Shown: piece after piece, positions 10,455 through 45,613 of the stretch
Numbering within the stretch: the first letter of the stretch is position 1
How the letters are laid out: every line of letters begins with the position of its first letter
From: an uncultured Omnitrophica bacterium
GTDB lineage: Bacteria > Omnitrophota > Gorgyraeia > JACQQV01
Length of the DNA: 64,000 bases
Direction of reading: 5' to 3'
Assembly: GCA_947085655.1 (NCBI GenBank)
Contig: CAMTXH010000009.1
Span: forward strand, 3,738-67,737
The notes under the pieces: model-generated
Told to the model about the DNA's origin: nothing
The model's input: the letters and a program-made list of their open reading frames with translations, nothing else
The model's database searches: none
Translations under genes and position numbers: made by a program

Positions 10455-11945
10455 ATGGCAGCGTTTCCGACGCTTGACGAACCGATTACAGAATTAACAG
10501 AATTAAGAGAGAAGACCCTCTCCGGCATGAAATGGGTTTTTCTCTCCAGTTTCAGCCAGAGGGTTATCGGTCTGGTCACGACCATTTTCCTCGCCCGCCT
10601 CCTCATGCCTTCCGAATTCGGACTCTTTGCCCTCGCTTTTGTCATGATCGACGGGTTCGGGCTTTTCAAGAGTCTCGGTTTTGACACGGCGCTTCTCCGC
10701 TGGCAGGGAAAGGATGCGGAGGAAGCGGCCGACACCGCCTTCCTTCTGGTCCCCTTTTTCGGAATGACGCTCACCCTCACTCTCCATTTCTTCGCCCCTT
10801 ACGGCGCATCCCTTCTCGGAAACCCGGAGGTGACACCGGTCATCCGGATGCTCGCCTTCATTTTTATCTTCAGTTGTCTTGCCCAGGTGCCGGGCGCGCT
10901 CATCCAAAAACGCTTGGATTTCTGGCAAAAGGCGACTCCCGAAATTGCAGCCGGTATCCTTTATTCCGTCTCGGCCGTAACGTTCGCCTTTCGGGGGTTC
11001 GGCGTCTGGAGTCTGGTTTATGCGTATCTTTTGAAAACAATCCTTTACATGTCGATGATCTGGATCTTTGCCGGCTGGAGGCCCCGCTTCCGCTTCCGTC
11101 CGCATTTGGCGGCGGAGATGTTTCAATTCGGGAAATTCATCTTTCTCGGGAGTCTTCTGGGATTTCTGCGGAATAATCTTGATAATTTCGTCGTCGGAAA
11201 AATGATCGGATTGAGCGCACTCGGTTATTACGCAATCGCCTTTAATCTCGCTGCCTTTCTCTCACAGCACCTTATTACCCGGATGCAGGGGGTCTTTTTT
11301 CCCGTTTTTTCCAAAATCCAGGAGGATACGGAGGTTCTGCGGCGCGGTTTTCTGAAGTCGTTCAAAATGACTTCGATCGTTGCAATTCCATTTAGCCTCT
11401 TTCTGCTGATCGCAGGGCCGAATTTCCTGGAGACGGTCTATGGCAGCAAATGGGCCCCTGCCGGACCGGTTCTCCGGATCCTCGCTTTGGCGGGGCTCTT
11501 CCGGGCCCTCGGCGGAATCATGAGCCCCGTCTTTCTGGCGAAGGGAAGATCACGCCTTGATTTTGTGTTGAATATCCTTCAGGCAATTCTTTTCTTCCTC
11601 TTAATGATTCCGGCAGCGCACTTTTTCGGACTGGAGGGGGTGGGGGTATCGGTTTTAGTCTCCTCCCTTGCCGCTTTTGTCCTCGGGGCGGTGCGGCTTC
11701 GGCAGATTATCCAAATTTCCATCAAGCAGATGCTGTTACTGATGAAACCGGCCTTTGTCGGTTCAGGGGTGATGCTGGCCGTCTTTGGCGCTCTTTCGGC
11801 AGGGAGATCTTTGCTTGGGTATCTCACCGCCCCCGCGGCCGTAACCGCCTTCATCGTTGTCTGCGGTTTGTCCGGCATCGTTTACTTTTTATCGGTGTTG
11901 GTGCTTGATCGGGATGTACGGATCGAAGTGAGGAGAATTGTCTGA
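10455..11945 (+). CDS. Wzx-type polysaccharide flippase (MOP/Polysacc_synt family)
   Basis: 496 aa, ~12-14 TM helices, N-terminal motif (KWVFLSSFSQRVIGLVTTIFLARLL) typical of Wzx flippases. Confidence 0.8.
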   Translation: MAAFPTLDEPITELTELREKTLSGMKWVFLSSFSQRVIGLVTTIFLARLLMPSEFGLFALAFVMIDGFGLFKSLGFDTALLRWQGKDAEEAADTAFLLVPFFGMTLTLTLHFFAPYGASLLGNPEVTPVIRMLAFIFIFSCLAQVPGALIQKRLDFWQKATPEIAAGILYSVSAVTFAFRGFGVWSLVYAYLLKTILYMSMIWIFAGWRPRFRFRPHLAAEMFQFGKFIFLGSLLGFLRNNLDNFVVGKMIGLSALGYYAIAFNLAAFLSQHLITRMQGVFFPVFSKIQEDTEVLRRGFLKSFKMTSIVAIPFSLFLLIAGPNFLETVYGSKWAPAGPVLRILALAGLFRALGGIMSPVFLAKGRSRLDFVLNILQAILFFLLMIPAAHFFGLEGVGVSVLVSSLAAFVLGAVRLRQIIQISIKQMLLLMKPAFVGSGVMLAVFGALSAGRSLLGYLTAPAAVTAFIVVCGLSGIVYFLSVLVLDRDVRIEVRRIV

Positions 11946-12373
11946 TGCAGCCGACGGTGAGCGTGATTCTACCCACTTACGACAGACCCCGTTTTTTGAA
12001 GGAAGCGATCCAGAGCGTTAAAGATCAGACGTTTTCCGACTGGGAACTGATTGTGGTGGACAATGCCTCGGGGCCGGAAACGAAAAAGGTCGTTGATTCA
12101 TTTTCACCCGATCCACGGATCTGTTATCTGCGGCGCAACAGACCGGGAACGGCCGCAACGGCCCGCAACCAAGGGATAACCGAAGCCAGAGGACGTTATC
12201 TCGCTTTTTTGGATGACGACGAAGTGTGTTGTGATTCGAAACGGATGTGGGTTCGATACCACTATAGCCGCACCTCACCCAATTTTTCGATTCGGAGACG
12301 TCTGCGTCGCTGGTGGGAGAAGGGCACCTCGCACATCCTGAAAGGAGCAAGGACCTTATGCCGCGCCACCTGA
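11945..12373 (+). pseudogene. GT2 glycosyltransferase N-terminal fragment (142 aa), apparently truncated after the DXD motif
   Basis: VSVILPTYDRPRFL...LIVVDNAS...FLDDDEV is a normal GT2 N-terminus, but the ORF ends ~40 aa later in non-GT2-like sequence and overlaps the next gene; GT2 enzymes are normally 250-330 aa; no alternative frame continues the domain. Confidence 0.45.
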
Positions 12374-14589
12374 ATCATCCGACCGCGGCGATCTTGACCT
12401 TAGGCGCCCCGCAGAGTCTTTGCATCGCTCGGAGTCTCGGTCGTCGGGGAATTCCGGTCATCGGATTGGATGGGAATCCCCGGAGCATGGGGGTTTTTTC
12501 ACGATACTGCCACCCTGTCCTTTTGCCGGCTCTGGGAAAAAATCCGGAAGCATGGCTTGAAACCCTTGTTTCGGAAGGGAAAAAAAGAGAAACGCCCGCT
12601 GTTTTATTTCCCTGCAACGACGCAAGTGTCCTTTGGGTTGCGGAGCACCGGGAGGCCCTTGAGACCTATTACCGTTTCCGAATTTCCCCTCTTGAGGTCG
12701 TTCGGCTCATTTTGAATAAACCCCGGATGACCGCGCATGCCAAATCACTCGGTCTTTCAGTTCCGCGCCATCTCATGCTGGAGCGAAAAGAGGATCTGGA
12801 GAGGGTGGCGGGGGAAATCGGTTTTCCCTGCGGCATCAAGCCGGTTTACAGTCATGAATGGAAACACCATTTCTCAACCGACAAACTGCTCTCCGTTTCC
12901 TCAACAACGGAGTTAGAAAAAGAGTATTCCAAACTGGAGCGGACCGCCCTGAAATTTTTTGTGACGGAGCTGATCCCCGGGGAGGATCGGGACCTCTTTG
13001 GGCTGTATACGCATCTCGATCGGAACGGAAAACCGCTCTATCTTTACACCTGCCGGAAACTCCGGCAATATCCGCCCTATTTCGGAAACGGATCGCTCCG
13101 CGAAGGGATTGACGAACCGGCCGTCTCGGCGCTTGGGTTCTCCCTTCTGGCGAAAATCGGGTGCAGGGGACTTGCGCATGTCGAGTTTAAATGGGACCGG
13201 CGGGACGAAAGTTGGAAACTCATCGAGGTCAATCCCCGTGCCACCATCGCCTTGCCCCTCGTGGCGGGAAGCGGAATCGACGCACCGTATCTCGCATACC
13301 GGGATGCCTTGGATCAACCGGTAGAGCCGCAGGAGGTCAAAACCTATCGGAGGAAACTTTTGTATTTGGTGGAGGACATCGATGCCTTCCGTGCCTACCA
13401 CAGGGAAGGGAAACTCTCCTGGGGCGGATGGCTTCGGTCCCTGTGGGGGGCGAATGTCTTCGGGATTTTCGCCTGGGATGACCCGATGCCGTTTCTCCGA
13501 TTGGTTGCGTATCGAATGGGGCGGGCCGCGCGGAGTCTCCTCAAGAGGTGGAGCCCGGAGAGTATTCACCGCCCCCGACATCTCCTTTTTCGACGGTTCA
13601 TCAAGGTCTGTTTGTCCTACTGCCTCTTCTATAGCGGGATTCTATGGATCCGCCGCTTCCAAAGACAGAAGGAAGGGGAGTTCCGGATTCTTGTGTATCA
13701 CCATATCACGGAAAAAGAAGATCATTCGGGTCTGCCGGCGTCCGTCTTCAAGAAACAGATTGCCTGGATTCAGAAACATTATGCGGTCATATCCCTCAGT
13801 GAACTCCTTCTTCGAAAGAAACAAAGTCTTCCGTTACCCGAGCGGGCGATGGCGATTACCTTTGACGACGGGTACAGTGACTTCGTAACCAGGGCTTATC
13901 CGGTTTTGAAGGAGGCGGGACTTTCGGCGACGCTTTTTGTGGTGATTGACTGCCTGGAACAGAAACCCCTTTGGACCGAGTCTTTAAAAGTCTGGTTTGA
14001 CCTTACTTCCCGCAAACGGCTTGATTTTTCCTTAAACGGCGAGACATACTCCTTGCCGCTTGGAAATGACCGTGAAAAAAGAGAAGCGCGGGAAACACTC
14101 AAGGGCAAACTGAAGCGGGTGAAAAACGGTGAGCGGCTCATTCTGATGGAAAAAATAAAAAAGGAACTTTTGGGCGAAAAAGAAGACGGATTCCCGACCG
14201 GGATGCTGATTTGGGAAGATATCTTGAAACTTTCGGAGGACGGTGTCGAAGTTGGTGCACATACGTTGAGCCATCCGATCCTGACGCAGATTTCGGAAAA
14301 GGAGGCCCGGCACGAGATTACAGAGTCCAAGAAAAGACTCGAGGCGCGTCTTGGGAAACCGGTACAGATTTTTTCTTACCCGAACGGAGAGATCGGCGAT
14401 TTCAACGAGTCGGTGGAGCGGATTGTCAGGGACGCCGGGTTTTTAGGTGCCTGCACCGCCATTGAAGGAAAAAATGATGCTTCGAGCAATCCGTTTACCC
14501 TGAGGCGGCTCGGGACATGGGAGCGGTCGCTCCCTGTGTTTGCCTGCATGCTTGAGGGCTGCTTTGACCTGTTTCAAAGGAGACCATGA
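12358..14589 (+). CDS. ATP-grasp domain / NodB-type polysaccharide deacetylase fusion protein
   Basis: Likely start ATG 12358 (SD AAAGGAG 10 nt upstream; ORF-track start 12313 is GTG). N-terminal ~400 aa is an ATP-grasp fold (IGFPCGIKPVYSH...LIEVNPR); central TM segment; C-terminal NodB motifs (ITFDDGYSDF, HTLSHPIL, IFSYPNGE). Confidence 0.7.
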   Translation: MPRHLNHPTAAILTLGAPQSLCIARSLGRRGIPVIGLDGNPRSMGVFSRYCHPVLLPALGKNPEAWLETLVSEGKKRETPAVLFPCNDASVLWVAEHREALETYYRFRISPLEVVRLILNKPRMTAHAKSLGLSVPRHLMLERKEDLERVAGEIGFPCGIKPVYSHEWKHHFSTDKLLSVSSTTELEKEYSKLERTALKFFVTELIPGEDRDLFGLYTHLDRNGKPLYLYTCRKLRQYPPYFGNGSLREGIDEPAVSALGFSLLAKIGCRGLAHVEFKWDRRDESWKLIEVNPRATIALPLVAGSGIDAPYLAYRDALDQPVEPQEVKTYRRKLLYLVEDIDAFRAYHREGKLSWGGWLRSLWGANVFGIFAWDDPMPFLRLVAYRMGRAARSLLKRWSPESIHRPRHLLFRRFIKVCLSYCLFYSGILWIRRFQRQKEGEFRILVYHHITEKEDHSGLPASVFKKQIAWIQKHYAVISLSELLLRKKQSLPLPERAMAITFDDGYSDFVTRAYPVLKEAGLSATLFVVIDCLEQKPLWTESLKVWFDLTSRKRLDFSLNGETYSLPLGNDREKREARETLKGKLKRVKNGERLILMEKIKKELLGEKEDGFPTGMLIWEDILKLSEDGVEVGAHTLSHPILTQISEKEARHEITESKKRLEARLGKPVQIFSYPNGEIGDFNESVERIVRDAGFLGACTAIEGKNDASSNPFTLRRLGTWERSLPVFACMLEGCFDLFQRRP

Positions 14590-15251
14590 TGGCTACCGAA
14601 CGACTCGTTCAGAAGTTGTCGATTGTCACTTTGGTATTGATCGGCATCCATGTCGTCAATCTGTTAGCGGGAGGCCCGAGTTGGCAGGTGGAGCGACTTT
14701 TTCATCTGGGGTTGGAGGGGAATCTGGTGACATGGTTTTCGAGTCTTCTCTGGGCTTTGGCGGCCCTTGCCGCCTATCAATGTTTCCAGGCATCTGCCGA
14801 ACCGCTCGAGCGTCGACTGTGGCGTTGGATGTCGGCCGGAATGCTCGTGTTGTCCATCGATGAAGTGGCGATGATCCATGAGTCCTTCGGACATGCGTTA
14901 TCCAAACATTTTCTTTCTCCCGTTGTAAAAGAGACCTTTCGGGCAACGGTATGGCCTGTTGTGTTGGGGCCGCTGGTCCTTTTTACCGTTATCGTTTTCA
15001 GTGTTGCAATTTGGTATTGCGTGAGGGAATCTGTCCCCGCAGGACGCCGGATTTTCCTGGGTGTTTTGATGATGCTTCTTGGCGGTTGGTTCCTTGAAAC
15101 AACGACCAACTTTTTAAATCACGGTCCGCTCGAATGGCTCTGGCAGGTCGAAATCATTGCGGAGGAGAGCCTGGAGATGTTCGGCGTCATTGTCCTTTTT
15201 TCAGGACTGTTAATCCATCAAAAATTTTTGAAGCGTCAGCTGGAGGATTGA
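14586..15251 (+). CDS. integral membrane protein (hypothetical, ~6 TM)
   Basis: 221 aa, multiple hydrophobic helices; ATGA overlap with the upstream gene. Confidence 0.55.
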   Translation: MMATERLVQKLSIVTLVLIGIHVVNLLAGGPSWQVERLFHLGLEGNLVTWFSSLLWALAALAAYQCFQASAEPLERRLWRWMSAGMLVLSIDEVAMIHESFGHALSKHFLSPVVKETFRATVWPVVLGPLVLFTVIVFSVAIWYCVRESVPAGRRIFLGVLMMLLGGWFLETTTNFLNHGPLEWLWQVEIIAEESLEMFGVIVLFSGLLIHQKFLKRQLED

Positions 15252-15252
15252 A

Positions 15253-17115
15253 ATGCCCGGTGTGATTGGATATGCAAGCACGGAACCCATAGATCGGCGG
15301 TTGCTTGAGGCGATGGCGCAGCCGATGCGGCACCGTCCCTGCTACCGGATCCATCTCCGTCCAGGAGAGACTTTTTCGATCGGAACGATTGATTTGGAAG
15401 CGGGTCGTCAATCGAGCATCGCCGAGTCGGCGGATGGAACGGCGATCTTGGCTGTCTTCGGCACGCTTTATGAACCGTGGGCCACGGAGGGGAACGGATT
15501 GGCCAAACAACTTCTCGCCAAATGGAAGAGTGGGGGTATGAGGGCCCTTCGGGATTTGAACGGCGAGTATGTCATTGCGATTTGGAACCGCCCCGAGCGA
15601 CGCCTCACCCTTATCAATGACCGGTTGGGGCTCAAGCGTCTTGCCCTCCGGAAGAAGGGAAAGATGTTCGCATGGGCTTCCGAGGTGAAGAGTCTCGCCG
15701 TGATACCTGAGGTGAGCCGTGCAATCGATGAACAGGCCCTTTCGGAACTTCTCACCTTCGGGCATCTTCAGGATGAGCGGACGCTTTTGCGGGATGTGAC
15801 ACTCCTTCCTCCGGCGTCCATCCTTACTTGGCAGGAAGGGAAAGTGTCGATCGAGCGGTATTGGAGATACACTTTCCGGGCCGATCCCCGGCTCGAGGAG
15901 ACCGAGAAAGCCGCTTCGGAATTTGCGGACCGGGTTCTTCTTGCGGTAGACCGGCGGATCCGGAACCGGAAACGGATCGGGCTTCTTTTAAGCGGCGGGT
16001 TGGATTCGCGGACGCTTGCCGGTATGATCCGGGAACTTCGTCCCAAAGATCCTTTTTTCACCTGGACGACTGGTCATAGCCACGCGCACGATGTGCGATT
16101 TGGGGCAGAGATTGCAAGGGTTATCGGAAGCCGCCATACAACGGTTGAGATTCCGGAGACATTTCTTCAGGATTTTGGCCCGCATTACGCTTGGGTGTTG
16201 GACGGTATGGTCACGACACACGGTGCCCACCGGACATGCGTGCTGGAAGCCCTTGCAAGGGAGACCGATGTGGCATTGATCGGGTTTTTGGGGGATATTC
16301 TGAGCGGCGACCGTCCGTTAAATAAGTTGACGCACATCAGTACCCTGGAGCATTTGATCGACGTCGGCTATCGCTATTATGCGGTCGGCTTTGATGATGC
16401 TCTTTTTGAGAAGACGCTTCGTCCGGAAGTTTTTCGCCGGATCCGGGGCTTGGCAAAAGAGACGTTTGCCAAATCAGTCCAAGAAGCACCGGTAGAAAAT
16501 CTCGCCGATCGGGTGGTCTATACGGAATTGATACAACGGCAGCGACTTTGGAATCCCCTCGCCATGATGGATCTCATGGGAATTGACTGTCATGTGGCAA
16601 CCCCCTTTGTGGACCGGGACTTTGTCGATTTTGCCCTCACGTTGCCGCTTGGCCAGCGTTTTGGAAAAAAGGCGTATCTTGGGATGCTCTGCAAGATGTT
16701 TCCGAAACTGGCCCGTGTTCCGAGGTCGGGGGACGGACTTCCCCTGGTTCATTCCCGGCTCCGGGCAGGCCTCCATTGGCGATGGGTTTTGTTTCATCGG
16801 CATGTCCTTCCCAAACTGACAGGGGGGCTTCTCGGAGGACACAATTACGCGACTTATGTCCACTGTGCGGAGTGGTTCCGGAAGGCGAACCGCTCCTTTA
16901 TCGAGAGGACCTTGGTGAACAGCCCTTATTTGGAGACGCATTTCCGGATGGAAACGGTTAACCGGCTGGTGCAGGACTTTTTGGAGGAGCGCGGCGGACG
17001 GGATTTGATGGAACCGATCGCAGCGCTGATGAGTTTTGTCCTCTTCCGACAACAGTTGGAACGGTTGGCCCGTTACGCTCCCCAACCCCAAAAAGAGGAA
17101 ATACTCGTTCGATGA
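15253..17115 (+). CDS. asparagine synthetase (AsnB)-family amidotransferase, copy 1; N-terminal nucleophile Cys replaced (MPGVIG instead of MCGI)
   Basis: PP-loop SGGLDS at aa ~236 and AsnB C-terminal synthetase domain; N-terminus aligns to the class-II glutaminase domain but Cys2 is Pro. Confidence 0.75.
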   Translation: MPGVIGYASTEPIDRRLLEAMAQPMRHRPCYRIHLRPGETFSIGTIDLEAGRQSSIAESADGTAILAVFGTLYEPWATEGNGLAKQLLAKWKSGGMRALRDLNGEYVIAIWNRPERRLTLINDRLGLKRLALRKKGKMFAWASEVKSLAVIPEVSRAIDEQALSELLTFGHLQDERTLLRDVTLLPPASILTWQEGKVSIERYWRYTFRADPRLEETEKAASEFADRVLLAVDRRIRNRKRIGLLLSGGLDSRTLAGMIRELRPKDPFFTWTTGHSHAHDVRFGAEIARVIGSRHTTVEIPETFLQDFGPHYAWVLDGMVTTHGAHRTCVLEALARETDVALIGFLGDILSGDRPLNKLTHISTLEHLIDVGYRYYAVGFDDALFEKTLRPEVFRRIRGLAKETFAKSVQEAPVENLADRVVYTELIQRQRLWNPLAMMDLMGIDCHVATPFVDRDFVDFALTLPLGQRFGKKAYLGMLCKMFPKLARVPRSGDGLPLVHSRLRAGLHWRWVLFHRHVLPKLTGGLLGGHNYATYVHCAEWFRKANRSFIERTLVNSPYLETHFRMETVNRLVQDFLEERGGRDLMEPIAALMSFVLFRQQLERLARYAPQPQKEEILVR

Positions 17116-17813
17116 ACGCCTTGACGCAGTTTGAACGGGGATGGCGCTGTTTCAAAGAGGAGGGGCCGACAGAAACGTTTTACCGGTTGCTTCACCGGCT
17201 CCGTCTGGTTTCCGTGCATCACGCACTCGACATCTACCTGAAAGAGATGGGGGAGGGCCCGGAAAAGCATCTGGCCGATGAAGGATTGCATCTGAACTTT
17301 CGGGAGATATTTCCGGATGAAATTGAGCGTTTCAGATATCCGGAAGAATTCCGATTCTTTGACGGCTCCTCTCCTATCCAGCTCATGCAGAAAGTTTTTA
17401 CCGAGAAGATGCGTTTCTTTGCCGCATTGGATGGGGATCTTTTGATTGCTTTAAACGGTGTGAATACAAAAATTGCGAACCTCTGGTCTTTGAAGAAACA
17501 GTCGTTGCCTCTTCCGGGGGGGACCGTCTATTTGGACAATGCCATGACCGCCCCGCAATACCGGCGCCGGGGAATCGGGAGCGCTCTCCGTTCCTATATG
17601 ATGCATCTCCTTCGCGAGGAAGGGTATCGACGCGTGATTCTTGCCACGCACCCTGACAATAAAGGCGCCGCCCGTTGGCAGGAATCCCAGGGGTTTCAGC
17701 GTTGGGGTAGGATCCGGTATCTGAAATGGCGGGGGAAAGATATATGGAAGTATGAGTGGACGCCGTTGGGACGGCGTGAACCCAATCTGATCCCGAATGG
17801 ACGATTCAAATGA
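17112..17813 (+). CDS. GNAT-family acyltransferase, copy 1 (paired with AsnB-like copy 1)
   Basis: Acetyl-CoA binding motif QYRRRGIGSALRS...; ATGA overlap with upstream gene; paralogous to 19621-20331. Confidence 0.7.
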   Translation: MNALTQFERGWRCFKEEGPTETFYRLLHRLRLVSVHHALDIYLKEMGEGPEKHLADEGLHLNFREIFPDEIERFRYPEEFRFFDGSSPIQLMQKVFTEKMRFFAALDGDLLIALNGVNTKIANLWSLKKQSLPLPGGTVYLDNAMTAPQYRRRGIGSALRSYMMHLLREEGYRRVILATHPDNKGAARWQESQGFQRWGRIRYLKWRGKDIWKYEWTPLGRREPNLIPNGRFK

Positions 17814-19624
17814 ACAGCACAAAAACCATCGAAAAAGTATCCCGGATAACCGCGCAGACACTGACCAGCCGTTTTCTGGCCTATCTGCCGGAACCGGGGA
17901 TTTCCAACGGAAGCCTTACCGCCCGTCTTTCCCGGTATGCTGAGAGTGTCGGTCTGACCATCCGTCGAAGCGATCCTTTTTTCTTCGCATGCGCACTTCC
18001 ACAGTCCATGAATAACCAAGAGAAAGGTATTTCGGAGGACGAAACGGTGCTGGATGTTTTTCCAGGAACAGCCGCTTCCAAGCGTTCCTTCAATGTCCCC
18101 TCGGGGAGATGGGATTGGGAAGCGTGGCACAAGATGGCTTCCCGGGAAGCGCAGTGTTATAACCTTTTCCGGCTGACGGATGAAGGCATGGAGTGGCAGA
18201 GCGACCCGTTAAGTCTCAAACCATTTTATCAGGCGGAAGTTCAAGGGGGCACCCTTTTGGGGTCACGGATTACTGATCTGGTTCATCTTTTTCCGGAACT
18301 CATTAAGCCCCTGGACGAGACCAGTGTCTATGGATTCCTTATTATGAATGCGTTCCCTTCCGACCGGACGCTCCATGCAAAAATCAGGCGCGCACCGACA
18401 GGCGCTGTCTACCGTTGGACGCCTCGTGAGGGGCTTTCCGTGACGCGGGAACGGCGCCTTAAAGCCCCGCCGGTGAATGCGAACGGGGACGTCAAGGAAA
18501 TGGTTATGCAAATCCGGGAGGCGATGGAAAGGAGTCTCTTTGAAAGAATCCAAAATGCCGCTTTGCCCCCTGTTCTTTCCTTATCCGGGGGATTTGATTC
18601 CCGCCTCATCGCAGCGATGGTCTGCCGGAGGGGCCTTCCCCTCAAGGCCTATACGTACGGGAATCCCCACCATCACGAAGTCTGGGTGGCCAAGCAGATT
18701 GCAAAACTCCTCGGGCTCGATCATACGCTTCTTCCTTATCGGGAAAATAACCTCTTGGAGCGCCTCCCGATTCACTTGGATCTTTTGGAAGGCCACGCGG
18801 ATCTGGGTGTCGTGCAGGTTGCGAATACTTTTCAGATAGAAAGCCCTGCAGGGACTCCGCTCCTTCATGGTCTTTTGGGGGAGACCCTTGCGGGAAATGT
18901 CGCATGGCCGGAAGAAAAAGAATATGAAAATCCCGACACTTTTGCGAGGGCAATCATCCGGGAATATTCAAGGAAGGTTGTATTCGAGGGGCTCCCATGG
19001 TTGGAAGAAGAGAGAATGGAAGAGGCCCAGCGCAAGGACATCAAGTCGTATCTTCAGCAGGACCACCCCTCTTATCAGGCGATGATGCTCTGGGACCTTG
19101 AATACCACCAGCGACGGGACGGCGGGGCCTATATTGGGTTGGTTGCAAACCACTTTGATGTCATGGCACCCAATTACGATCTTGAGGTGATGAAGGCATG
19201 GCTTTCCGTGCCGCGCATCGCCCTTGAGAAGAGGTCATTTTTCCGGGAGCTGTTGGCGCGGGAATTTCCGGAACTGGCAAAGATTCCGCATCCGACAGAG
19301 ATGCACCCGATTTTGCCGAATCTGAAACGGCAACTCGCTTTTTATCTGGAGGGGAAATGGTCGCGGCTCCGGATGCGGCTTCTCGGAAAACATCCGAATA
19401 TCGAACTTCTCTGGTGTGTACTGACGCCCGGCCAGAGACAGACGATGCTTTCTGAGATCGGCTCCCTCCGGGAGGTTGCGGAGGATGGACTGGGGTTGAA
19501 AATGCCCGAGGATGTCAAGATGTTGGAAAAAAGCCATCCCCAAATTGTCAGGAACCTTTTTTTGATGACGCGCTATGCGGCATGGATTTTAAACGGGAAC
19601 AAAGCCGAAGAGGTACGCGTATGA
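17810..19624 (+). CDS. asparagine synthetase (AsnB)-family amidotransferase, copy 2 (no glutaminase Cys)
   Basis: PP-loop LSLSGGFDSRL; AsnB-like C-terminal region; N-terminus lacks the MCG glutaminase start. Confidence 0.7.
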   Translation: MNSTKTIEKVSRITAQTLTSRFLAYLPEPGISNGSLTARLSRYAESVGLTIRRSDPFFFACALPQSMNNQEKGISEDETVLDVFPGTAASKRSFNVPSGRWDWEAWHKMASREAQCYNLFRLTDEGMEWQSDPLSLKPFYQAEVQGGTLLGSRITDLVHLFPELIKPLDETSVYGFLIMNAFPSDRTLHAKIRRAPTGAVYRWTPREGLSVTRERRLKAPPVNANGDVKEMVMQIREAMERSLFERIQNAALPPVLSLSGGFDSRLIAAMVCRRGLPLKAYTYGNPHHHEVWVAKQIAKLLGLDHTLLPYRENNLLERLPIHLDLLEGHADLGVVQVANTFQIESPAGTPLLHGLLGETLAGNVAWPEEKEYENPDTFARAIIREYSRKVVFEGLPWLEEERMEEAQRKDIKSYLQQDHPSYQAMMLWDLEYHQRRDGGAYIGLVANHFDVMAPNYDLEVMKAWLSVPRIALEKRSFFRELLAREFPELAKIPHPTEMHPILPNLKRQLAFYLEGKWSRLRMRLLGKHPNIELLWCVLTPGQRQTMLSEIGSLREVAEDGLGLKMPEDVKMLEKSHPQIVRNLFLMTRYAAWILNGNKAEEVRV

Positions 19625-20331
19625 ACGCCGTTTCACGTTTATGGAAATGCTATCGGGATTACGGTCCGGCCGAAACCTTCTGGCGGCTTTTGCACCGTTT
19701 CCGGATTATTTCGATCAATCACTCGCTTGATCTTTTCTTGAGGGAGTTTAAACGGCTGCCGGGGGAGGGGCGGAACGGGATTCCGCGGACTGTGGATGTC
19801 GGAGGGCTTCAGGTGTTGTTGCGGGAGATCAGTCTTGGGGAGGTTGAAACGTTGAAAGTTGCGGACGGCCTTCGCTATACGGAAAGGGAATCAGTGCAAA
19901 AAGCCCTTCAGAGACTTATGAAGGAGGGAGGACGATTTTTCGCGGCATTCGCGGATGATCGGGTCGTGGCGCTGAACGGCATCCACCGCTCTTTTGCCAA
20001 TCTTTCCTTTATTCAGAAGCCGTTGGTCCGGCTGCCGGAAGGGGTAGTTTACTTCAATGCGGCCCTGACAGCACCGGACTACCGGAATCGAGGAATCGGA
20101 ACGGCTCTCCGCCGCCACGTCTTCAGTGTCATGCAGCGGAGCGGCTACCACGGTGTGACGCTCGCCGTTTTCATCGAAAACAAGGGAGCGATCCGGTGGC
20201 AGGAGGCGAACGGTTTCAAGCGGTGGGGAAGGATCCGGTATATCAAGGGGTTTGGACGCGAATTTTGGCGAACCCGGTTGACCGAAATGGGACATCGGTA
20301 TCCGAATCTTCTGGCGGGAGGGACTTCATGA
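19621..20331 (+). CDS. GNAT-family acyltransferase, copy 2
   Basis: Start ATG 19621 overlapping upstream TGA (ATGA); DYRNRGIGTALRR motif; same N-terminal MNA...WKCY...ETF...LLHR pattern as copy 1. Confidence 0.7.
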   Translation: MNAVSRLWKCYRDYGPAETFWRLLHRFRIISINHSLDLFLREFKRLPGEGRNGIPRTVDVGGLQVLLREISLGEVETLKVADGLRYTERESVQKALQRLMKEGGRFFAAFADDRVVALNGIHRSFANLSFIQKPLVRLPEGVVYFNAALTAPDYRNRGIGTALRRHVFSVMQRSGYHGVTLAVFIENKGAIRWQEANGFKRWGRIRYIKGFGREFWRTRLTEMGHRYPNLLAGGTS

Positions 20332-21062
20332 GCATTCGGAGTTTTGCCATGACCTATCCCCAACTGATGAATCAGGCGATGGCGCAGGGATTGAGTAAAG
20401 GCGACATCCAACGTCTCCGGACTGCTTATGATGTGGCGGAGGAATGGTTTAACAGTTTTTACAGGGGACAGGGCGTGCCATTTATTTGCCATGTGGTCCG
20501 GACGGCAAGCATTGTCCTTTCGGAGCGTCAGCCGGTGGAAGTAGTGATGGCTGCGATGCTCCATGCGGTTTATATGCGGGGTCTTTTTTCCGGATACCAC
20601 CGGAATCAGCCGGTTGAGAAACTCCGGAGCGAGATCCGGAAAGCGGTCGGCGAAGAAGTGGAGGCACTGATCTGGGCCTACGAAACATTTCCCTGGTATT
20701 CGCAACCTGCGCTCGACTGTCATTTGAAAGAAATGGAGACGTACGACCCGATGAAACGGCGTGTTCTTGTAATGCGGGTGGCGAATGAACTCGAAGATTA
20801 CCTGGATCTGGGGATGGTATATCGCAAAGGAGACGGTTTCCGGAAACGGATTGAGCTCTATCGCGGGCGGTTTACGGAGATTGCACGACGGCTCGGCCTT
20901 TCCCGGATTGCAGAAGAACTGAATGAGGCCTATGAGACTCACCTGGTTGCCTGCTTGCCGGAGGAGACTACCCGGGAACATGCCAATGCCTACTGGCGCC
21001 AAGATCGCACCAACAGGTTCAAGGCACTTTTCGAGAAAGCGGTCTCTCTGGTGAAAAGATGA
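20328..21062 (+). CDS. HD-domain-like protein (RelA/SpoT-type hydrolase fold) with degenerate HD dyad
   Basis: ATG 20328 overlaps upstream stop; FICHVVRTASIV...VVMAAMLHAVY resembles the H...HD helix of (p)ppGpp-hydrolase HD domains but reads HA instead of HD. Confidence 0.4.
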   Translation: MSIRSFAMTYPQLMNQAMAQGLSKGDIQRLRTAYDVAEEWFNSFYRGQGVPFICHVVRTASIVLSERQPVEVVMAAMLHAVYMRGLFSGYHRNQPVEKLRSEIRKAVGEEVEALIWAYETFPWYSQPALDCHLKEMETYDPMKRRVLVMRVANELEDYLDLGMVYRKGDGFRKRIELYRGRFTEIARRLGLSRIAEELNEAYETHLVACLPEETTREHANAYWRQDRTNRFKALFEKAVSLVKR

Positions 21063-23754: not shown

Positions 23755-24713
23755 ACCCACCGACGGTCAGTGTGATTATTCCGACCTATAACCGCGCGCA
23801 CTTAATCCGGGAAGCGCTGGAGAGTGTCTTTTCCCAGACCTACCGTGATTATGAAGTGATCGTGGTGGATGACGGATCCACCGATAACACGCGGGAGATC
23901 CTCGCTTCTTATCGGGACCGGATCCACATCGTCTGGCAGGAGAATCAGGGCATTTCCGCGGCCCGGAACCGGGGTATTCTCCTCGCCAGGGGAAAGTATC
24001 TTGCATTTCTTGATTCGGACGACCGGTGGCTTCCGGAAAAACTCGAAAGACAGGTTTCCTATTTGGATCAAAATTCCTACATGGGATTGGTCTCTAGCCA
24101 TCTTTGGCGTTATGAAATCGGAAAGGAAAAGGAGCGGGAGCGGGTTCCGCGAAGCATCGGACGGAGCTTCGGGGAACTGGTGACCGGCCCGAATTTCATC
24201 GATACCTCCACTGTGGTCATTCGGAAACGGTGCATCGAGGTCGTCGGCAACTTTGACGAGTCGATGCCGGCGGCGGAAGATTGGGAACTTTGGGTCCGGA
24301 TCGCGAAGCGCTTCGGGATCCACTGCATGGAAGATATCTTGGCGGAACATCGGTGGCATCCGGCAAACACCACCAAAGACATGACCAAGGTCTATGAGGG
24401 GTATTGGAAATTTTACAAAAAGGTCCTCCGGCTTCACCGAACACTTCTCCCGAATATCCGTTATTTTAAAGACCGGAAGGCCTTCTTTCAGTACCTCCTC
24501 GGCACAACCTATTTGAAGCAGAAAAAGATGCACAAGGCCCTTTACCACATTGCCGGCGCATTGAAGGGAGAATGGTCCATCGGGATCTCCTTTGATCAGA
24601 GACATTCCCTCGGGTCGCGGATTCAATATTTTCTGAAACCATATGCCGCGTTCACGGTCAGTATTTTCGGGGCGATGGTGTCCATTGTGATTCCGGCCTG
24701 GAGGTCCCAATGA
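23751..24713 (+). CDS. GT2 family glycosyltransferase
   Basis: Start ATG 23751 (ATGA overlap; ORF-track start 23571 is an upstream extension); VSVIIPTYNRAHLI...VIVVDDGSTDNT...FLDSDDRWLPEKLE. Confidence 0.8.
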   Translation: MNPPTVSVIIPTYNRAHLIREALESVFSQTYRDYEVIVVDDGSTDNTREILASYRDRIHIVWQENQGISAARNRGILLARGKYLAFLDSDDRWLPEKLERQVSYLDQNSYMGLVSSHLWRYEIGKEKERERVPRSIGRSFGELVTGPNFIDTSTVVIRKRCIEVVGNFDESMPAAEDWELWVRIAKRFGIHCMEDILAEHRWHPANTTKDMTKVYEGYWKFYKKVLRLHRTLLPNIRYFKDRKAFFQYLLGTTYLKQKKMHKALYHIAGALKGEWSIGISFDQRHSLGSRIQYFLKPYAAFTVSIFGAMVSIVIPAWRSQ

Positions 24714-27700
24714 ACCGGGAAATCCGTCTCCTCATGATTGTTTCGGGCGACACAAAATTTTTGGAGCCGATGCTTCCGACGAACGCGTGGCTGCAAAAGC
24801 GGCACATCGCCTATGGCCATCGGATCGGCCGCCTTTCGATTCTGGTCAAGACGACCGGAGAAAAGTGGCCCATCCGGAATCTCTCGGAGAAGGTCACCGT
24901 TTATCCGACCAATTCAGCCAATTCCCTTTCGGCGGTCTGGGATCTTTATCGGGAGGGAATCAGGATTGCGAGAAAGGAGCAGCTGAATCTGATTGTAACC
25001 GGCGATATCTTTGGATGCGCCTGGGTGGCGTATGCCCTGAAACGGCGTCTCGGGATTCCGCTTGCTCTTCAGATGCTCGGCGATTTTGTTGATAATCCGT
25101 ACTGGGTGAAGGAGCGGTTGCGATTCCGCCTTTTGAACATCGTCGCCAAATGGCTCATCAAAAGGACGGATGCGGTCAGGGTGCATGGGGAAAGGGTGCG
25201 GGAAAAACTGATTCGACGGTTCGGATTTCCGCCGGAGAAGGTGCGCGCCATTCCGATTCCGATCCAGCGCGAGTCCTTTTTGAAAGTCTCCGAAAAGGAG
25301 GCGGCCGGAAAGACGGTTCTTTGGATCGGCCGGATGGTCCCTCAAAAAGACCTCTCCACTTTTCTACGGACCGCCACGCGGGTTCTTGCCCGTCATCCCG
25401 AGGCCCGGTTCCGGCTGATCGGGGAGGGGTTTGAAGCGGCGGCAGCCAAAGCACTAGCCAAAATCCTGAGAATTGATTCATCGATCGAGTGGGTCGGAAC
25501 CGTGCCATACGAGCAGATTCCGGACTATTTGGCTCAATGCGATCTTCTTGTCCTCAGTTCCCGCTTTGAAGATGCCCCGAGGGTTCTGGTGGAGGCCTCG
25601 CTTGCAGGACGGCCGGTGGTGACGACGGGAGTCGGGGGTGCGGATGAAGTGGTCCAGGACGGAAAGACCGGATTCATCATTCCAGTCGGAGACGATAAGG
25701 CACTTGCTGAGAAAATTTCTCTTCTTTTTTCGGAGCCGGAGCGCGCAAAGGCGCTCGGCCGCACCGGACGGGAATTTGCGAAGACTCTGTGGCATTTCGA
25801 TACGATTTTGGAGGAGTTGACGCATTGGTGGCAGCAGGCCATCAACCGTTCCGGCGGAGACTCGCGGCAACCGGTTGTTCTTGTGGCCGAATCGGGAAGC
25901 GGATTCGGAGGGACTGCCAAGTATCTCTATACCCTTTTGTCCAACGGGAGACAGCAGCCGGGACACCTTCAGATCCTGACTTACCGTAGCGGACCTTTCT
26001 TAAAGAGGGTGGAGGAGTTGGGGTATCGTCTCTTTCGCGCACCGGTCTTACGCTTCCCCTGGTTTGAAAATTTCCTAAAGCCGACGAAAAAAATGAATTC
26101 TCTTCGGTATGGATTCGGTGCTCTTGTCATGGTGATCCAACTTCTTCTTTTGGTTCCCGGAACGGCGCTCTGGCTTTTCTGGAAGCGGGTCCGGCTGGTC
26201 CATTTAAACAATGAAATCCATTCACACCTTGTGCTTCTTTTGGCCGCGCGAGTTGCCGGATGCCGGGTGCTCTGCCACCTCCATGGATGGCGCCCCTGGA
26301 CCCGGCTTGAAAAGATGGCGGCCCGGTTTGTTCATCTTTATATCGGAATTACGCATCGGGGGACTCATTTTTATCGGGACATCTGCCCGAAGGGGCGGTT
26401 TGTCACGGTGGCGAACGGCGTCGCCTTCGAACAGGAAAATGGTTCCGAGAAGCGACAGACTATCCGGAGGGAGTTCGGCCTCGGAGAAAACGACATCTGT
26501 TTGGGGATGCTCGGACGGATGATTCCTGAAAAGGGACAGGAAATTTTCCTGGAGACGTTTCAAAGGATTGCTCAAAAAGGCCTGCCGGTTCATGCGTTTC
26601 TGGTCGGCGGAGCGGAAGGGGACGGCTCTTTCCTTGACCAACTTCACCGCAAGATCGAGGGTTTGGGCATCAAGAAGAAGGTGCACTTTGCAGGGTTTCA
26701 AAAAGAGACGGCGCCTTATCTTGAGGCGATGGATATTGTGGTCAGCCCTTCCTTAATACCGGAATCGTTTGGGCTCGGAATTGCAGAGGCGATGGCGGCG
26801 GGGAAGCCGGTAGTGGCCCATGCGACCGGTGCGGTTCCGGAATTGGTGCAGGACCGGATCACGGGACTTCTTGTTTCTCCCGATCAGCCGGGACGGCTTG
26901 AAGCCGCCATTCTTGAACTGATTCGGGACCGGCTGTTTGCCGAGGAAATGGGGGAACGGGGAAGAGAGTATGTATTGCAGCATTTTGACATCCGCCAAAA
27001 CGTCCGGAAGATCCATCGGATTTATAAGGTCCTATTGAACGAGTCCAGATTTCTTCAACCCTCCGTTTTAACCACCTATCCGATTCCGCAAAGCCCCCTC
27101 TGGAAGAGCCGGACGGTGCTGGCAGCGCCTCGTCAGAGAAAACGCCTTTTCCTCGGCCGTCTGGGCATTCGGGATCTTTCCCTTGTTTTCCGTCTTTTCC
27201 GGATGCGTCGCCATTTTGATTTGATCCTGACCGGTGCCGAACGGGAGGATTGTCTCTTTGCCCTGCTCCAGTCCGTTCTTCCCGGAAAGAAAATTCCCCA
27301 TATCATGGTGGAGTGTCTTTGGAAGCATGAATCGAATTCCCCGAAGCGCTTTTTTAAACGGATGCTCCTTCACAGCGTCAACCGTTCGGTGGATCGGTTT
27401 GTTGTCTGGTCCTCCGAGGAAAAGGAAAGCCACCCGGCTTACTTCGGCCTTCCGCGCAAGAAATTCGTCTTCGTGCCGCATCATGTCACGCTGGGAGGGT
27501 ATGATATCACGCCCAAAAACGGTGACTACATTTTCTCCGGAGGGGATTCCTCCAGGGACTATCGCACCCTTCTTGAGGCGGTCGAACCTCTTTCGGTCCA
27601 GACGGTGATCGTGGCTCGTCAAGCGGCTTCCTGGAACGGAAAACCGCTTCCGTCCCATGTGACGGCGAAGGCGACCGATCCGGTTGAATTCCGGAGACTG

Positions 27701-43250: not shown

Positions 43251-43436
43251 TCTTCCGTGTTGTATTTAGGGTCAACATGTCGAATTGCTTAAACAGATTA
43301 AATCTGGACTGTCCTGGATAACCCTGGACAAACCCGGACAGTCTCTGAATAGAGGGAAAATTAATGCATAACTTATTTCATTATAAAGAGTTACAGACAT
43401 GACAAATAGAAAAATATTAATTCCTTTACGGGAGGT

Positions 43437-43452
43437 TGGCATGGAGATTGCG
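43437..43452 (+). promoter_or_regulatory. sigma-54 (RpoN) -24/-12 promoter TGGCAT-N5-TTGC
   Basis: TGGCATggagaTTGCg at 43437-43452; consensus spacing; ~60 nt upstream of ATG 43514; preceded at 43304-43343 by four CTGGAC-like repeats with 10-11-bp phasing. Confidence 0.55.
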
Positions 43453-43513
43453 TATATTCAATAGATGCGGCAGACTTTCTATGCCTTGTTTGGACCAAGA
43501 TTAAACAAATAAA

Positions 43514-45590: not shown

Positions 45591-45613
45591 AAAACAAGGA
45601 GGAGGTAAGTAGC

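Follow-up and report, generated by a model that had tools for sequence, protein, structure and literature searches.

Two questions are raised by an open reading frame of 142 aa (positions 11945–12373, plus strand) in the window, i.e., the 64,000-nt stretch of DNA analyzed here. Is this frame, which resembles only the beginning of a GT2 glycosyltransferase, the remnant of a longer gene, and what could be the function of the gene that follows it, in which an ATP-grasp ligase is joined to a CE4/NodB de-N-acetylase?

Gene neighborhood

The features of the locus are listed in Table 1. They belong to an exopolysaccharide gene cluster in a complete exosortase/PEP-CTERM locus (PF09721, 1e-67; EpsI; PEP-CTERM proteins), which also includes a histidine kinase and a sigma-54 regulator. 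No FemAB-like gene (PF13480/TIGR03019) was detected in this locus by Pfam and NCBIfam searches. The start codon of the short frame overlaps the TGA stop of the flippase gene by 1 nt (TGATG), and the start of the gene for a 221-aa membrane protein overlaps the stop of the fusion gene (ATGA). This membrane protein had no Pfam or NCBIfam match above the cut-off, and homologues were absent from the other loci fetched. The first AsnB-like protein begins with MPGV and so has no Cys2 nucleophile; it probably takes part in amide chemistry on the sugar. In the second one, no glutaminase domain was detectable. The first GNAT protein corresponds to the GNAT domains inside the homologues P0001, P0003, and P0284 and has a weak match to MshD (2.8e-6). 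Two further NodB domains are encoded elsewhere in the window. The cluster is prone to gene fusion, with a triple GT4, a double GT4, and a NodB-GT4 gene.

Table 1. Features of the locus, with positions in the window
Feature	Position	Strand	Evidence
Wzx/MOP flippase gene	10455–11945	+	PF13440 (4.9e-73); NF007773 (1.3e-74); 53% identity to the L004 flippase
Shine-Dalgarno-like GAGGAG, 10 nt 5′ of the short-frame ATG	11930–11935	+	read from sequence; function inferred
GT2-homologous part of the short frame (aa 1–96)	11945–12232	+	PF00535; homology to P0122 and the L004 GT2
Tail of the short frame (46 codons and stop) without GT2 similarity	12233–12373	+	tblastn with 40 GT2 relatives, all frames
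GGAG ribosome-binding site of the fusion gene, 10 nt before ATG 12358	12344–12347	+	read from sequence
Fusion gene (743 aa): ATP-grasp ligase, linker helices, CE4/NodB de-N-acetylase	12358–14589	+	domain and homologue searches
ATP-grasp domain (aa 1–400), COG3919/“D-aspartate ligase”-annotated type	12358–13557	+	profile, AF2, Foldseek
Helix-kink-helix linker (aa 407–436)	13576–13665	+	AF2 helices; Kyte-Doolittle
CE4/NodB de-N-acetylase domain (aa 440–743)	13675–14586	+	PF01522 (2.6e-25); AF2; Foldseek
Insertion of ~90 aa between CE4 motifs 1 and 2	13963–14232	+	Pfam span, homologue consensus, predicted structure
Multi-pass membrane protein (221 aa), no known family	14586–15251	+	ORF list, hydropathy
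AsnB-like amidotransferase	15253–17115	+	PF00733 (5.7e-18); TIGR03108 (1.3e-33, under the model cut-off)
GNAT acyltransferase	17112–17813	+	PF00583 (6.3e-11); 28–31% identity to P0001 GNAT domains
Second AsnB-like protein, synthetase domain only	17810–19624	+	PF00733 (1.3e-8)
Second GNAT acyltransferase	19621–20331	+	PF00583 (2.3e-10); gene call

Truncated glycosyltransferase gene

The short frame was assessed by its Pfam match, alignment with 11 relatives, tblastn with 40 GT2 relatives, the junction in three assemblies, and synteny. Residues 6–95 matched PF00535 (E = 5.4e-27), covering only model positions 1–91 of 168. The N-terminal 96 residues, which make up the nucleotide-binding half of the GT-A fold as far as the DDD motif, scored 95 bits against Pfam, and no decay was seen there. 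Similarity to the aligned relatives breaks off at LAFLDDDE, at approximately residue 96. The closest full-length relative (L004:13830–14777) has 315 aa and 56% identity; P0122 and the GT2-homologous part are 60% identical. When this relative and 39 others were compared with the window by tblastn, all alignments ended at nt 12220–12241, and none of the 40 matched nt 12241–12500 in any frame. The initial annotation, according to which GT2 similarity is lost after the DDD motif and no frame carries the fold onward, was thus correct: the frame is a truncated GT2 remnant, the back two-thirds of the gene are lost, and about 225 codons are gone in every frame. The tail spans the ribosome-binding site and the start codon of the fusion gene, and its sequence was found only once in the window and the fetched loci.

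The junction was identical in GCA_964374045.1 and in the Logan assemblies of ERR3478686 and ERR4904392 (0–1 mismatch over 9–14 kb), and an identical 743-aa protein was called on six contigs from three assemblies. Recovery of one and the same junction in three independent assemblies shows it to be a deletion relic and neither a frameshift nor an assembly error; no frameshift can restore the GT2 gene. The truncated gene is carried by near-identical genomes only.

It is very improbable that the short 142-aa product has a function of its own, whether as a nucleotide-sugar-binding partner or regulator of the fusion enzyme or as a frame translated only to couple the flippase and fusion genes. Several features would suit such a role: neither the start codon nor its Shine-Dalgarno sequence is damaged, the frame begins within the flippase stop codon and remains open to 16 nt beyond the start codon of the fusion gene, and the N-terminal part is undecayed. 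However, half a GT-A fold is devoid of the acceptor site and catalytic base, and a tail of 46 codons stays open by chance in 16% of shuffles. None of the 40 matches was a divergent homologue with a comparable length and tail, so a conserved short orthologue was not found, and a near-identical allele (P0121) has a non-conservative change, I8N, in the conserved core strand VSVILPTY.

The initial annotation also suggested that the fusion gene had been inserted into the GT2 gene. Related loci favor a different origin. In L004, TyrK (69% identity) and the flippase (53%) are followed by one gene and then ATP-grasp (58%); in L013, an intact GT2, itself fused to ATP-grasp, comes after the flippase. 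Because related loci thus consist of flippase, intact GT2, and ATP-grasp, their gene order makes in situ deletion likelier than insertion. Entry of the ATP-grasp/deacetylase gene, alone or as part of a larger block, into an intact GT2 gene by insertion or recombination, with a breakpoint just after the DDD codons, is in our opinion quite improbable. It would account for the abrupt stop of GT2 homology and for the 128 nt of unique sequence before the fusion-gene start. The module occupies different positions and has different fusion partners between loci, and the best matches of its two halves lie in different architectures (P0002 and P0001), so recombination is frequent in such clusters. Nevertheless, the ATP-grasp gene of L004 holds the same place relative to TyrK and flippase, and in L013 it comes after the flippase and a GT2 that is intact; the adjacency is therefore older than the truncation. 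Neither repeats nor a duplicated target sequence nor any mobile-element feature was seen at the junction.

Under in situ deletion, a GT2 gene of ~315 codons formerly stood between the flippase and ATP-grasp genes, the frame is what is left of its 5′ end, and roughly 225 codons downstream of the DxD motif were removed. The relic retains its ribosome-binding site and start, reads into unrelated sequence, and terminates 16 nt inside the fusion gene. Its product can no longer serve as a glycosyltransferase and may at most preserve translational coupling within the operon.

Domain organization of the fusion protein

The fusion gene starts, as initially annotated, within the 3′ end of the GT2 remnant: its ATG at 12358 precedes the end of the remnant's stop codon (12371–12373), giving an overlap of 16 nt. 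GTG 12313 is a possible alternative start, but the N-termini of homologues equal the ATG 12358 version in length.

The ATP-grasp half gave weak Pfam matches. A profile of 33 homologues matched PDB ATP-grasp proteins, 2pn1 being the best (2e-19), and the AF2 model (pLDDT 94.6, pTM 0.92) had as its top Foldseek matches 2pn1, carbamoyl-phosphate synthetase, PylC, and L-amino-acid ligases. Residues K121, K161, E276, E290, N292, and R294 are all retained. Many homologues of this half carry the JGI label “D-aspartate ligase,” which is an automatic annotation. In the NodB half (AF2 pLDDT 94.5), the motifs TFDDG (D503, D504), HTLSH (H635, H639), YPNG, and R717 were identified, and these residues are invariant across 117 homologues. 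Together with the PF01522 match, these data confirm the ATP-grasp/NodB fusion, and judging from the sequence both halves have intact catalytic residues. The NodB half gave no match to the PEP-CTERM deacetylase model TIGR03006. Its Pfam match extends over aa 493–695 for 118 model positions. The extra ~90 residues, a helical and beta-hairpin subdomain in the AF2 model, are present in the consensus of the 117 homologues and are a family-wide feature.

The closest solved folds are those of the PgaB N-domain, PplD, IcaB, and BpsB (Foldseek E from 1e-12 to 4e-16; TM-scores on target not above 0.83), with which the NodB half has the Asp-His-His metal triad in common. These proteins work outside the cytoplasm, as exported or anchored enzymes, and their substrates are finished polymers or linkage units, whereas the NodB half has two N-terminal helices and the ~90-aa insertion and, judging by its fusion partners, must be cytoplasmic.

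The linker between the halves had been taken for a transmembrane segment, and the product for a membrane protein. In AF2 it forms helices 6–25 and 27–35 of the half-model (pLDDT around 95), with a hydrophobic core F414–I431 (nt 13597–13650), a conserved FYSG motif, and Arg/Lys clusters on both sides. The mean Kyte-Doolittle value over 19 residues is below 1.4. Equivalent linkers in 16 colinear fusions scored from −0.85 to 1.55, most of them being non-hydrophobic. A membrane span was rejected, as the hydrophobicity is too weak and is missing from most family members; the linker is probably a peripheral or structural helix. Direct fusions of NodB to GT4, to GNAT, and to ATP-grasp occur in relatives; since these partner domains depend on substrates in the cytoplasm, both halves must be on the same, cytoplasmic side. 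The protein would be a bifunctional enzyme of the cytoplasm, with a possible peripheral association with the membrane.

Distribution of the domain pairing

The pairing was initially considered unusual, which the homologue search contradicted. Among the best 150 representatives clustered at 50% identity, at least 24 had both domains, in either order: 16 ATP-grasp-NodB, 6–7 NodB-ATP-grasp, and one ATP-grasp-NodB-ATP-grasp. Variants with GNAT or GT4 domains occur as well, and GNAT domains often sit between NodB and ATP-grasp. In L011, L005, and L013 the same domains are encoded by separate adjacent genes, in L011 also with a FemAB-like GNAT. The fusion is thus recurrent yet unstudied. Related ATP-grasp domains are also fused to GT4 (P0002, 58% identity) and to GT2 (P0079).

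Proposed function

The initial suggestion that the enzyme deacetylates a sugar and re-acylates it at the same position is still the most plausible function in our analysis. The substrate of the CE4/NodB half would be a repeat-unit intermediate linked to either a nucleotide or undecaprenyl-PP, and the N-acetyl group would be removed from one of its amino sugars. Next, a small carboxylate, with an amino acid as the likeliest candidate, would be converted to an acyl-phosphate by the ATP-grasp half and joined to the freed amine. Capping of the newly introduced amino group would fall to the neighboring GNATs, and amidation of uronic-acid carboxylates to the AsnB-like enzymes. The ATP-grasp ligase would thus substitute for the tRNA-dependent FemAB-like transferase of canonical exosortase loci. 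We infer what the substrates are, which step comes first, and that the two halves are coupled. To our knowledge, no substrate is known for COG3919-type ATP-grasp proteins in polysaccharide loci. For the whole reading, a GT2 deletion relic followed by an enzyme of de-N-acetylation and then ATP-dependent N-acylation, our confidence is moderate.

The closest precedent is the Wbp/Vim linking-sugar pathway of Porphyromonas gingivalis and Tannerella forsythia, in which VimE (CE4) is proposed to deacetylate, VimA to add Ser or Gly next, and WbpS to amidate (PMC7468200). CE4 deacetylation, aminoacylation of the freed amine, and AsnB-like amidation of a uronic acid are all common to that pathway and our proposal, and the authors of the Wbp/Vim study pointed out that exosortases in PEP-CTERM loci have this same set of genes beside them. 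There, however, the enzymes are separate and the aminoacyl step belongs to VimA, which is GNAT/FemAB-like (TIGR03019-type), whereas here ATP-grasp is fused to the deacetylase. In peptidoglycan side-chain synthesis, the ATP-grasp D-Asp ligase and Fem transferases are alternative routes (PMC4155827). Aslfm/AslA shares the proposed chemistry, an ATP-grasp enzyme adding an amino acid via acyl-phosphate onto an amine of a cell-envelope precursor; it differs in acting on peptidoglycan, while our gene has an exopolysaccharide context and a CE4 fusion, and the likeness comes through automatic homologue labels. The mycothiol (MshB/MshC/MshD) and NodB/NodA pathways follow a similar logic: a GlcNAc derivative is de-N-acetylated, the amine is acylated or aminoacylated with ATP or an acyl donor, and a GNAT caps the product. 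MshB belongs to LmbE/PIG-L, MshC is similar to class I tRNA synthetases, and NodA is a distinct acyltransferase. These enzyme families differ from those in the window, and the likeness is an analogy only.

Some data do not fit the proposal. The nearest solved CE4 structures (PgaB, IcaB, PplD) are extracytoplasmic and act on finished polymers, and the GT-ATP-grasp fusions P0002 and P0079 resemble Cj1438. Given the two further NodB domains in the window, fusion may mean that the two halves are co-expressed or modify one and the same repeat unit, and not that they catalyze consecutive steps at one atom. The ATP-grasp half could be a uronic-acid amidoligase joining the C6 carboxylate to an amine (an amino acid, serinol, or ethanolamine), like Cj1438C of Campylobacter, with the NodB half acting on another residue and fused only because both decorate the same repeat unit. 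We consider this unlikely. Cj1438 of Campylobacter jejuni HS:2, a GT2 and ATP-grasp fusion in one capsule protein, amidates the carboxylate of GlcA by its ATP-grasp domain and acylates no amine (PMC11800379); it parallels P0079 and the order flippase, GT2, ATP-grasp. Close ATP-grasp relatives are fused to glycosyltransferases, and the cluster is rich in carboxylate-amidating enzymes. On the other hand, Cj1438C is TupA-like, while the domain in the window belongs to another ATP-grasp family, with no match to PF14305 (the TupA-like family of Cj1438) at E ≤ 0.01 in the Pfam search, and its partner is a deacetylase. Carboxylate amidation is already covered by the two AsnB-like enzymes. The repeated fusion of NodB to ATP-grasp in both orders, often with a GNAT between them, fits consecutive chemistry on a freed amine better.

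Domain composition of the ATP-grasp/NodB protein

The gene that follows the glycosyltransferase remnant encodes one protein made of two family-sized parts (Table). The N-terminal part (~400 residues) falls in a large family of stand-alone proteins of ~410 aa, and the C-terminal part (~340 residues) in an equally large one of stand-alone "polysaccharide deacetylase family" proteins of ~320–350 aa. The joining of an ATP-grasp to a NodB domain in a single gene, as stated in the initial annotation, was confirmed by PF01522 for the latter and by a 33-member family profile and the AF2 fold for the former. No JGI protein was more than 38% identical to the fusion.

For the ATP-grasp half, the Pfam scan (E ≤ 0.01) returned only PF15632 (9e-6, weak) and PF02786. 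The profile of 33 family members matched 118 PDB ATP-grasp chains with a best E of 2e-19. No close solved structure was found for this half, the best single-sequence match in PDB being carbamoyl-phosphate synthetase (8e-5). The two halves were modelled separately with AF2. The model of the ATP-grasp half (pLDDT 94.6, pTM 0.92) was nearest in Foldseek to 2pn1, carbamoyl-phosphate synthetase, PylC, and L-amino-acid ligases (E around 1e-16). The ATP-binding lysines K121 and K161, as well as E276 and E290-V-N292-P-R294 (Mg-binding E-x-N and Arg), were present and invariant or nearly so in 33 homologues. Homologues of this half are labelled in JGI as "predicted ATP-grasp superfamily carboligase" or "D-aspartate ligase", and this automatic name is the sole link to the D-aspartate ligase Aslfm/AslA.

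The NodB half matched PF01522 with E = 2.6e-25 (89.2 bits vs. a cut-off of 23.1), and the match was split by a ~90-residue insertion conserved across the family. The motifs T501-F-D503-D504-G and H635-T-L-S-H639, which carry the catalytic Asp and the Asp-His-His metal triad, were invariant in 117 homologues, as were YPNG and a C-terminal Arg, both present in the fusion. The AF2 model (pLDDT 94.5) was closest to the PgaB N-domain, PplD, IcaB, and BpsB. TIGR03006, the polysaccharide deacetylase of XrtA systems, was not among the NCBIfam matches of the fusion at E ≤ 1e-3 and was not matched by the two other NodB proteins of the window at E ≤ 1e-5. On these grounds, both halves of the fusion look catalytically competent.

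Features of the exopolysaccharide cluster in window coordinates
Feature	Position	Strand	Length
GT2 stub ORF	11945–12373	+	142 aa
Long ORF containing the fusion gene	12313–14589	+	
ATP-grasp/NodB fusion gene	12358–14589	+	743 aa
Multi-pass membrane protein	14586–15251		221 aa
AsnB-like protein, first	15253–17115		
AsnB-like protein, second	17810–19624		
HD_4/DUF6817 protein	20196–21062		
Protein with three GT4 units	24710–28030		1106 aa
Double GT4 protein	29603–31927		774 aa
NodB-GT4 protein	31924–33822		
Protein without Pfam/NCBIfam match	33815–35236		473 aa
PcRGLX-like/GH123-like protein	35233–39912		1559 aa
Third NodB, stand-alone	39909–40700		
Exosortase system	41617–46297 and 48624–51252	+	

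Recurrence of the domain pairing

HMMER was run in full against 1.84 billion representatives; of the 59,215 hits with E ≤ 1e-3, the best 150 were sorted by BLAST against each half of the fusion. Among these 150 proteins, the order ATP-grasp-NodB was found in 16, NodB-ATP-grasp in six (seven with P0284, which has both domains by Pfam), and ATP-grasp-NodB-ATP-grasp in one; tandem ATP-grasp proteins accounted for seven. The pairing had initially been described as unusual, a view that does not hold with 16 + 7 + 1 fusions carrying both domains among the top 150 of 59,215 hits. Further combinations with GNAT and GT4 domains were confirmed by Pfam. The domains also occurred in separate neighboring genes: in locus L011, a FemAB-like Acetyltransf_6 gene was followed by an ATP-grasp gene and, after two more genes, by NodB and a flippase, and the neighborhoods in L005 and L013 were similar. 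Taken together, the fusion counts, the further combinations, and the separate neighboring genes indicate that the pairing is clearly recurrent and functional as a module. In the literature searched, we found no paper describing it; none joined ATP-grasp, deacetylase, and exosortase, and co-mention of ATP-grasp, polysaccharide deacetylase, and exopolysaccharide occurred only in a general review.

A second, different cluster was present in L009, an ERR4904391 contig from the same project as one source of the organism of the window. It contained, in this order, an ATP-grasp-GT4 gene, P0001 (NodB-GNAT-GNAT-ATP-grasp, with a NodB half 54% identical to that of the window), an unknown gene, and a DUF6817/HD protein 51% identical to the HD_4/DUF6817 protein of the window. 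It is the same domain set rearranged in a co-occurring organism. Next to the ATP-grasp/NodB/GNAT module, the HD_4/DUF6817 protein, which has weak similarity to RelA/SpoT hydrolases, is conserved between the window and L009.

Linker and predicted location of the protein

The two halves were at first thought to be joined by a transmembrane segment within a membrane protein. The linker core, F414–I431 (FIKVCLSYCLFYSGILWI), had a 19-residue Kyte-Doolittle mean below 1.4 and was flanked on both sides by Arg/Lys clusters. In the 16 colinear ATP-grasp-NodB fusions, the best linker window ranged from −0.85 to 1.55, and none (0/16) reached 1.6. The equivalent helix was non-hydrophobic in several stand-alone deacetylases and in P0004, the colinear homologue with 97% coverage. 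GT4, GNAT, and ATP-grasp domains require NDP-sugar, acyl-CoA, and ATP, which are cytoplasmic. No additional membrane span was found in P0001, in P0003, P0005, and P0284 (NodB-GNAT-ATP-grasp), or in P0304 (ATP-grasp-NodB-GT4), so the NodB domain, as predicted from these architectures, must be cytoplasmic too and the linker helix cannot cross the membrane. A true transmembrane linker was thus ruled out by hydropathy and, decisively, by the domain architecture of relatives. AF2 predicted a helix-kink-helix with high confidence, and the role of the linker is probably peripheral membrane-binding or structural.

The truncated GT2 gene

The stub matched PF00535 over aa 6–95 (E = 5.4e-27), corresponding only to model positions 1–91 of 168, with the DDD motif at aa 90–92; many GT2 NCBIfam models aligned only through their first ~100 positions. 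In the alignment with eleven relatives, the family consensus was kept to LAFLDDDE (aa ~96), after which all resemblance was gone. The C-terminal half of the GT-A fold, with the acceptor site and catalytic base (model ~92–168 and beyond), was absent from the stub ORF and from all frames of 12241–12500. When 39 GT2 relatives were compared with the whole window by tblastn, all alignments at the stub locus stopped at nt 12220–12241, the C-terminal halves had no match downstream of the stub in any frame, and three other GT2 genes of the window were matched full length. The truncation after the DDD motif without a continuing frame was therefore as first described, and the all-frame search of the stub 3' region detected no GT2 similarity past nt 12241. 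The closest full-length relative found was a 315-aa GT2 (L004:13830–14777), 56% identical over aa 3–93; its residues 90–315 matched nothing nearby in the window, even at word size 2 and E ≤ 10. Since the C-terminal GT2 residues had no match, ~225 codons are physically missing, and the gene cannot be restored by any frameshift. In the stub tail, one Lys and one Pro were in register in the MAFFT alignment without BLAST-level signal and were treated as chance; in 16% of shuffles, a 46-codon tail stays free of stops by chance. On its domain content, the stub is a remnant and not a functional GT2 member. It matters mainly as an annotation caution: it will be named "glycosyltransferase" yet cannot be one.

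The same junction was present in NCBI assembly GCA_964374045.1 (contig CAYJWX010000008.1). Independent assemblies of runs ERR3478686 and ERR4904392 yielded contigs with an identical fusion protein and the 142-aa ORF; these contigs differed from the window by one synonymous base (12537) over 9–12 kb. A stub allele, P0121, had the same length and the substitution I8N in the conserved VSVILPTY strand. The copies are near-identical and so all represent a single population. An assembly artefact can be dismissed, and the junction is real. A frameshift sequencing error, raised in the initial annotation as the alternative, was ruled out by the agreement of three assemblies and by the lack of GT2 C-terminal coding potential in any frame. 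Among 40 database hits, no divergent homologue had the length and tail of the stub.

The flippase stop overlaps the stub start (TGATG), with GAGGAG 10 nt upstream of the latter. The stub stop lies 16 nt inside the fusion gene, confirming that the next gene starts within the stub 3' end. GGAG at 12344 precedes ATG 12358, which is most likely the start of the fusion gene rather than GTG 12313, because alignments with homologues such as P0002 pair residue 12 with residue 12. At its other end, the fusion gene shares ATGA with the gene that follows, its stop overlapping the start of that gene.

A scan of genome contigs yielded four loci only, at 58% identity or less; the GTDB representatives do not include the species of the window. 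In the syntenic locus L004, from a Candidatus Omnitrophota MAG, the order was tyrosine kinase (69% identical to that of the window), Wzx flippase (53%), one gene, and an ATP-grasp gene (58%) whose domain was fused to GT4. The slot between flippase and ATP-grasp was occupied by an HMGL/homocitrate-synthase-like gene (L004:2511–3623, JACQQV010000021.1; PF00682, 2e-74) whose stop overlapped the ATP-grasp start; a hydroxy-dicarboxylic or tricarboxylic acid made by its product might be the carboxylate that the ligase uses. The 315-aa relative of the stub was located 8 kb further downstream. In L013, the flippase was directly followed by P0079, a single protein in which an intact GT2 (40% identical to the stub) was fused to ATP-grasp, with a NodB protein encoded just upstream of P0079. 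In L012, a GT2-GT4 fusion directly preceded a NodB-GNAT-ATP-grasp gene. From these arrangements, the order flippase, GT2, ATP-grasp is a recurring native one, and a deletion inside a resident GT2 gene is the simplest history. Insertion of the fusion gene into GT2, as originally suggested, is less likely given this order, and no repeats or mobile-element traces were found at the junction (12215–12365). The stub is an ordinary deletion relic. Overall, the GT2 remnant, the overlap, and the ATP-grasp/NodB fusion of the initial annotation stood, and its transmembrane segment, unusual pairing, and insertion origin were set aside on hydropathy, top-150 counts, and synteny, respectively.

Two other sources of the junction were ruled out. 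The best GT2 paralogue in the window (about 23760–24713) was only 48% identical, which excludes a recent partial duplicate, and 12215–12365 had no significant match in the window or fetched loci, which excludes a copy from elsewhere. Another GT2 N-terminal fragment, P0140 (128 aa, on an ENA metagenome contig of 3083 bp), was 55% identical to the stub; its GT2 sequence stops short of the DxD motif, and what follows looks like the C-terminal end of a GT4. Other EPS clusters seem to contain deletion relics of this sort too.

The exosortase locus

PEP-CTERM/exosortase EPS loci reportedly bring together EPS genes, PEP-CTERM-tagged proteins, EpsI, and the exosortase EpsH (Haft 2006). The fusion gene lies within a complete locus of this kind, at about 6.5–51 kb of the window. 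It comprises Wza, a chain-length determinant, an ExeA-like ATPase (TIGR03015, 2.6e-91), a tyrosine kinase, Wzx, Wzy, four intact GT2 genes, six or more GT4 domains, three NodB domains, two AsnB-like genes, two GNATs, an exosortase, EpsI, a priming transferase, two PEP-CTERM proteins, and a histidine kinase with a sigma-54 regulator. The exosortase matched PF09721 (9.5e-68) and TIGR02602 (186 bits vs. a cut-off of 105), and scored 193 bits with the XrtA-specific model, just below the cut-off of 208. EpsI matched TIGR02914 (1e-25), and PF07589 was found in two proteins. FemAB-like genes are typical of canonical XrtA/exosortase loci. When all major ORFs of the window were scanned, none matched the FemAB-like models PF13480 and TIGR03019; a very divergent member could escape such scans.

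The exosortase system is placed downstream in the cluster; beside the EpsH-type exosortase, EpsI, and the Bac_transf priming transferase, it includes the two PEP-CTERM proteins, a TPR protein, and the PrsK/PrsR-like histidine kinase and sigma-54 response regulator. The first AsnB-like protein starts with MPGV, not MCG, and so lacks the Cys2 nucleophile, and in the second a GATase domain could not be detected. By these features, both look glutaminase-dead and may amidate a carboxylate using ammonia or another amine.

Proposed function

In many bacterial polysaccharides, amino sugars bear amino acids or unusual acyl groups, and to our knowledge the enzymes placing them are mostly unassigned. From domain chemistry, fusion patterns, and context, and by analogy with known systems, we propose a three-step scheme. 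The NodB half would free an amine on a cytoplasmic sugar intermediate, and the ATP-grasp half would ligate a carboxylate, probably an amino acid, to it. GNATs would then cap the added group, and the AsnB-like enzymes would amidate carboxylates. In the chief competing reading, a uronic-acid carboxylate would be amidated by the ATP-grasp half, which is the activity of Cj1438C of Campylobacter jejuni (PMC11800379); this would fit the GT-ATP-grasp fusions, but the ATP-grasp half did not match the TupA-like family, to which Cj1438C belongs, in the Pfam scan (E ≤ 0.01).

Precedents exist for aminoacylation as proposed in our scheme. According to Veith et al., the linking sugar of T9SS cargo is a 2-N-seryl or 2-N-glycyl, 3-N-acetyl uronic acid, as established by genetics and mass spectrometry, with a uronamide form in P. 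gingivalis (PMC7468200). They proposed that the CE4 enzyme VimE strips the 2-N-acetyl and the GNAT/FemAB-like VimA adds the amino acid, showed that the AsnB-like WbpS makes the uronamide, and noted the same trio adjoining exosortases (PMC7468200). In peptidoglycan, tRNA-dependent Fem transferases attach the L-amino acids of side chains, whereas for D-Asp an ATP-grasp ligase does so through beta-aspartyl phosphate (PMC4155827). The fusion belongs to a recurrent, uncharacterised family, and the chemistry likely for it has known precedents, here with a different type of ligase.

Vim and canonical exosortase loci have a FemAB-like (VimA-type) enzyme, whereas this locus has the ATP-grasp ligase of the fusion and no detected FemAB-like gene. 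It is conceivable, though we consider it improbable, that the fusion makes an N-aminoacyl or N-acylated amino sugar serving as the acceptor ("linking sugar") for exosortase transfer of PEP-CTERM proteins, with the ATP-grasp ligase as a tRNA-independent replacement of the VimA type. Such a replacement would mirror the Fem-versus-Aslfm dichotomy of peptidoglycan synthesis. As part of an exosortase locus in which the usual FemAB-like gene was not detected, the fusion gene offers a way to approach the molecule to which PEP-CTERM proteins are attached. More generally, the fusion provides a "Rosetta-stone" link, suggesting that widespread uncharacterised ATP-grasp ligases work with CE4 de-N-acetylases, often also with GNATs and glycosyltransferases, in exopolysaccharide synthesis. 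It makes the COG3919-type ATP-grasp family a concrete candidate for amino-sugar acylation enzymes.

Other genes of the cluster

The cluster is unusually rich in multi-domain fusions, represented by the two multi-GT4 proteins and NodB-GT4. The multi-pass membrane protein translationally coupled to the fusion gene had no Pfam/NCBIfam family above cut-off and no homologue in the other fetched loci. The 1559-aa protein, in which PcRGLX-like (rhamnogalacturonan-lyase-like) domains occur together with a GH123-like catalytic domain, is encoded inside the EPS cluster, and a GH123 protein 41% identical to it occupies the equivalent place in L012. The 473-aa protein was 54% identical to the product of an L012 gene (17119–18612) at the equivalent position and, judging from this match, is a conserved component, without an assigned family, of such EPS clusters.
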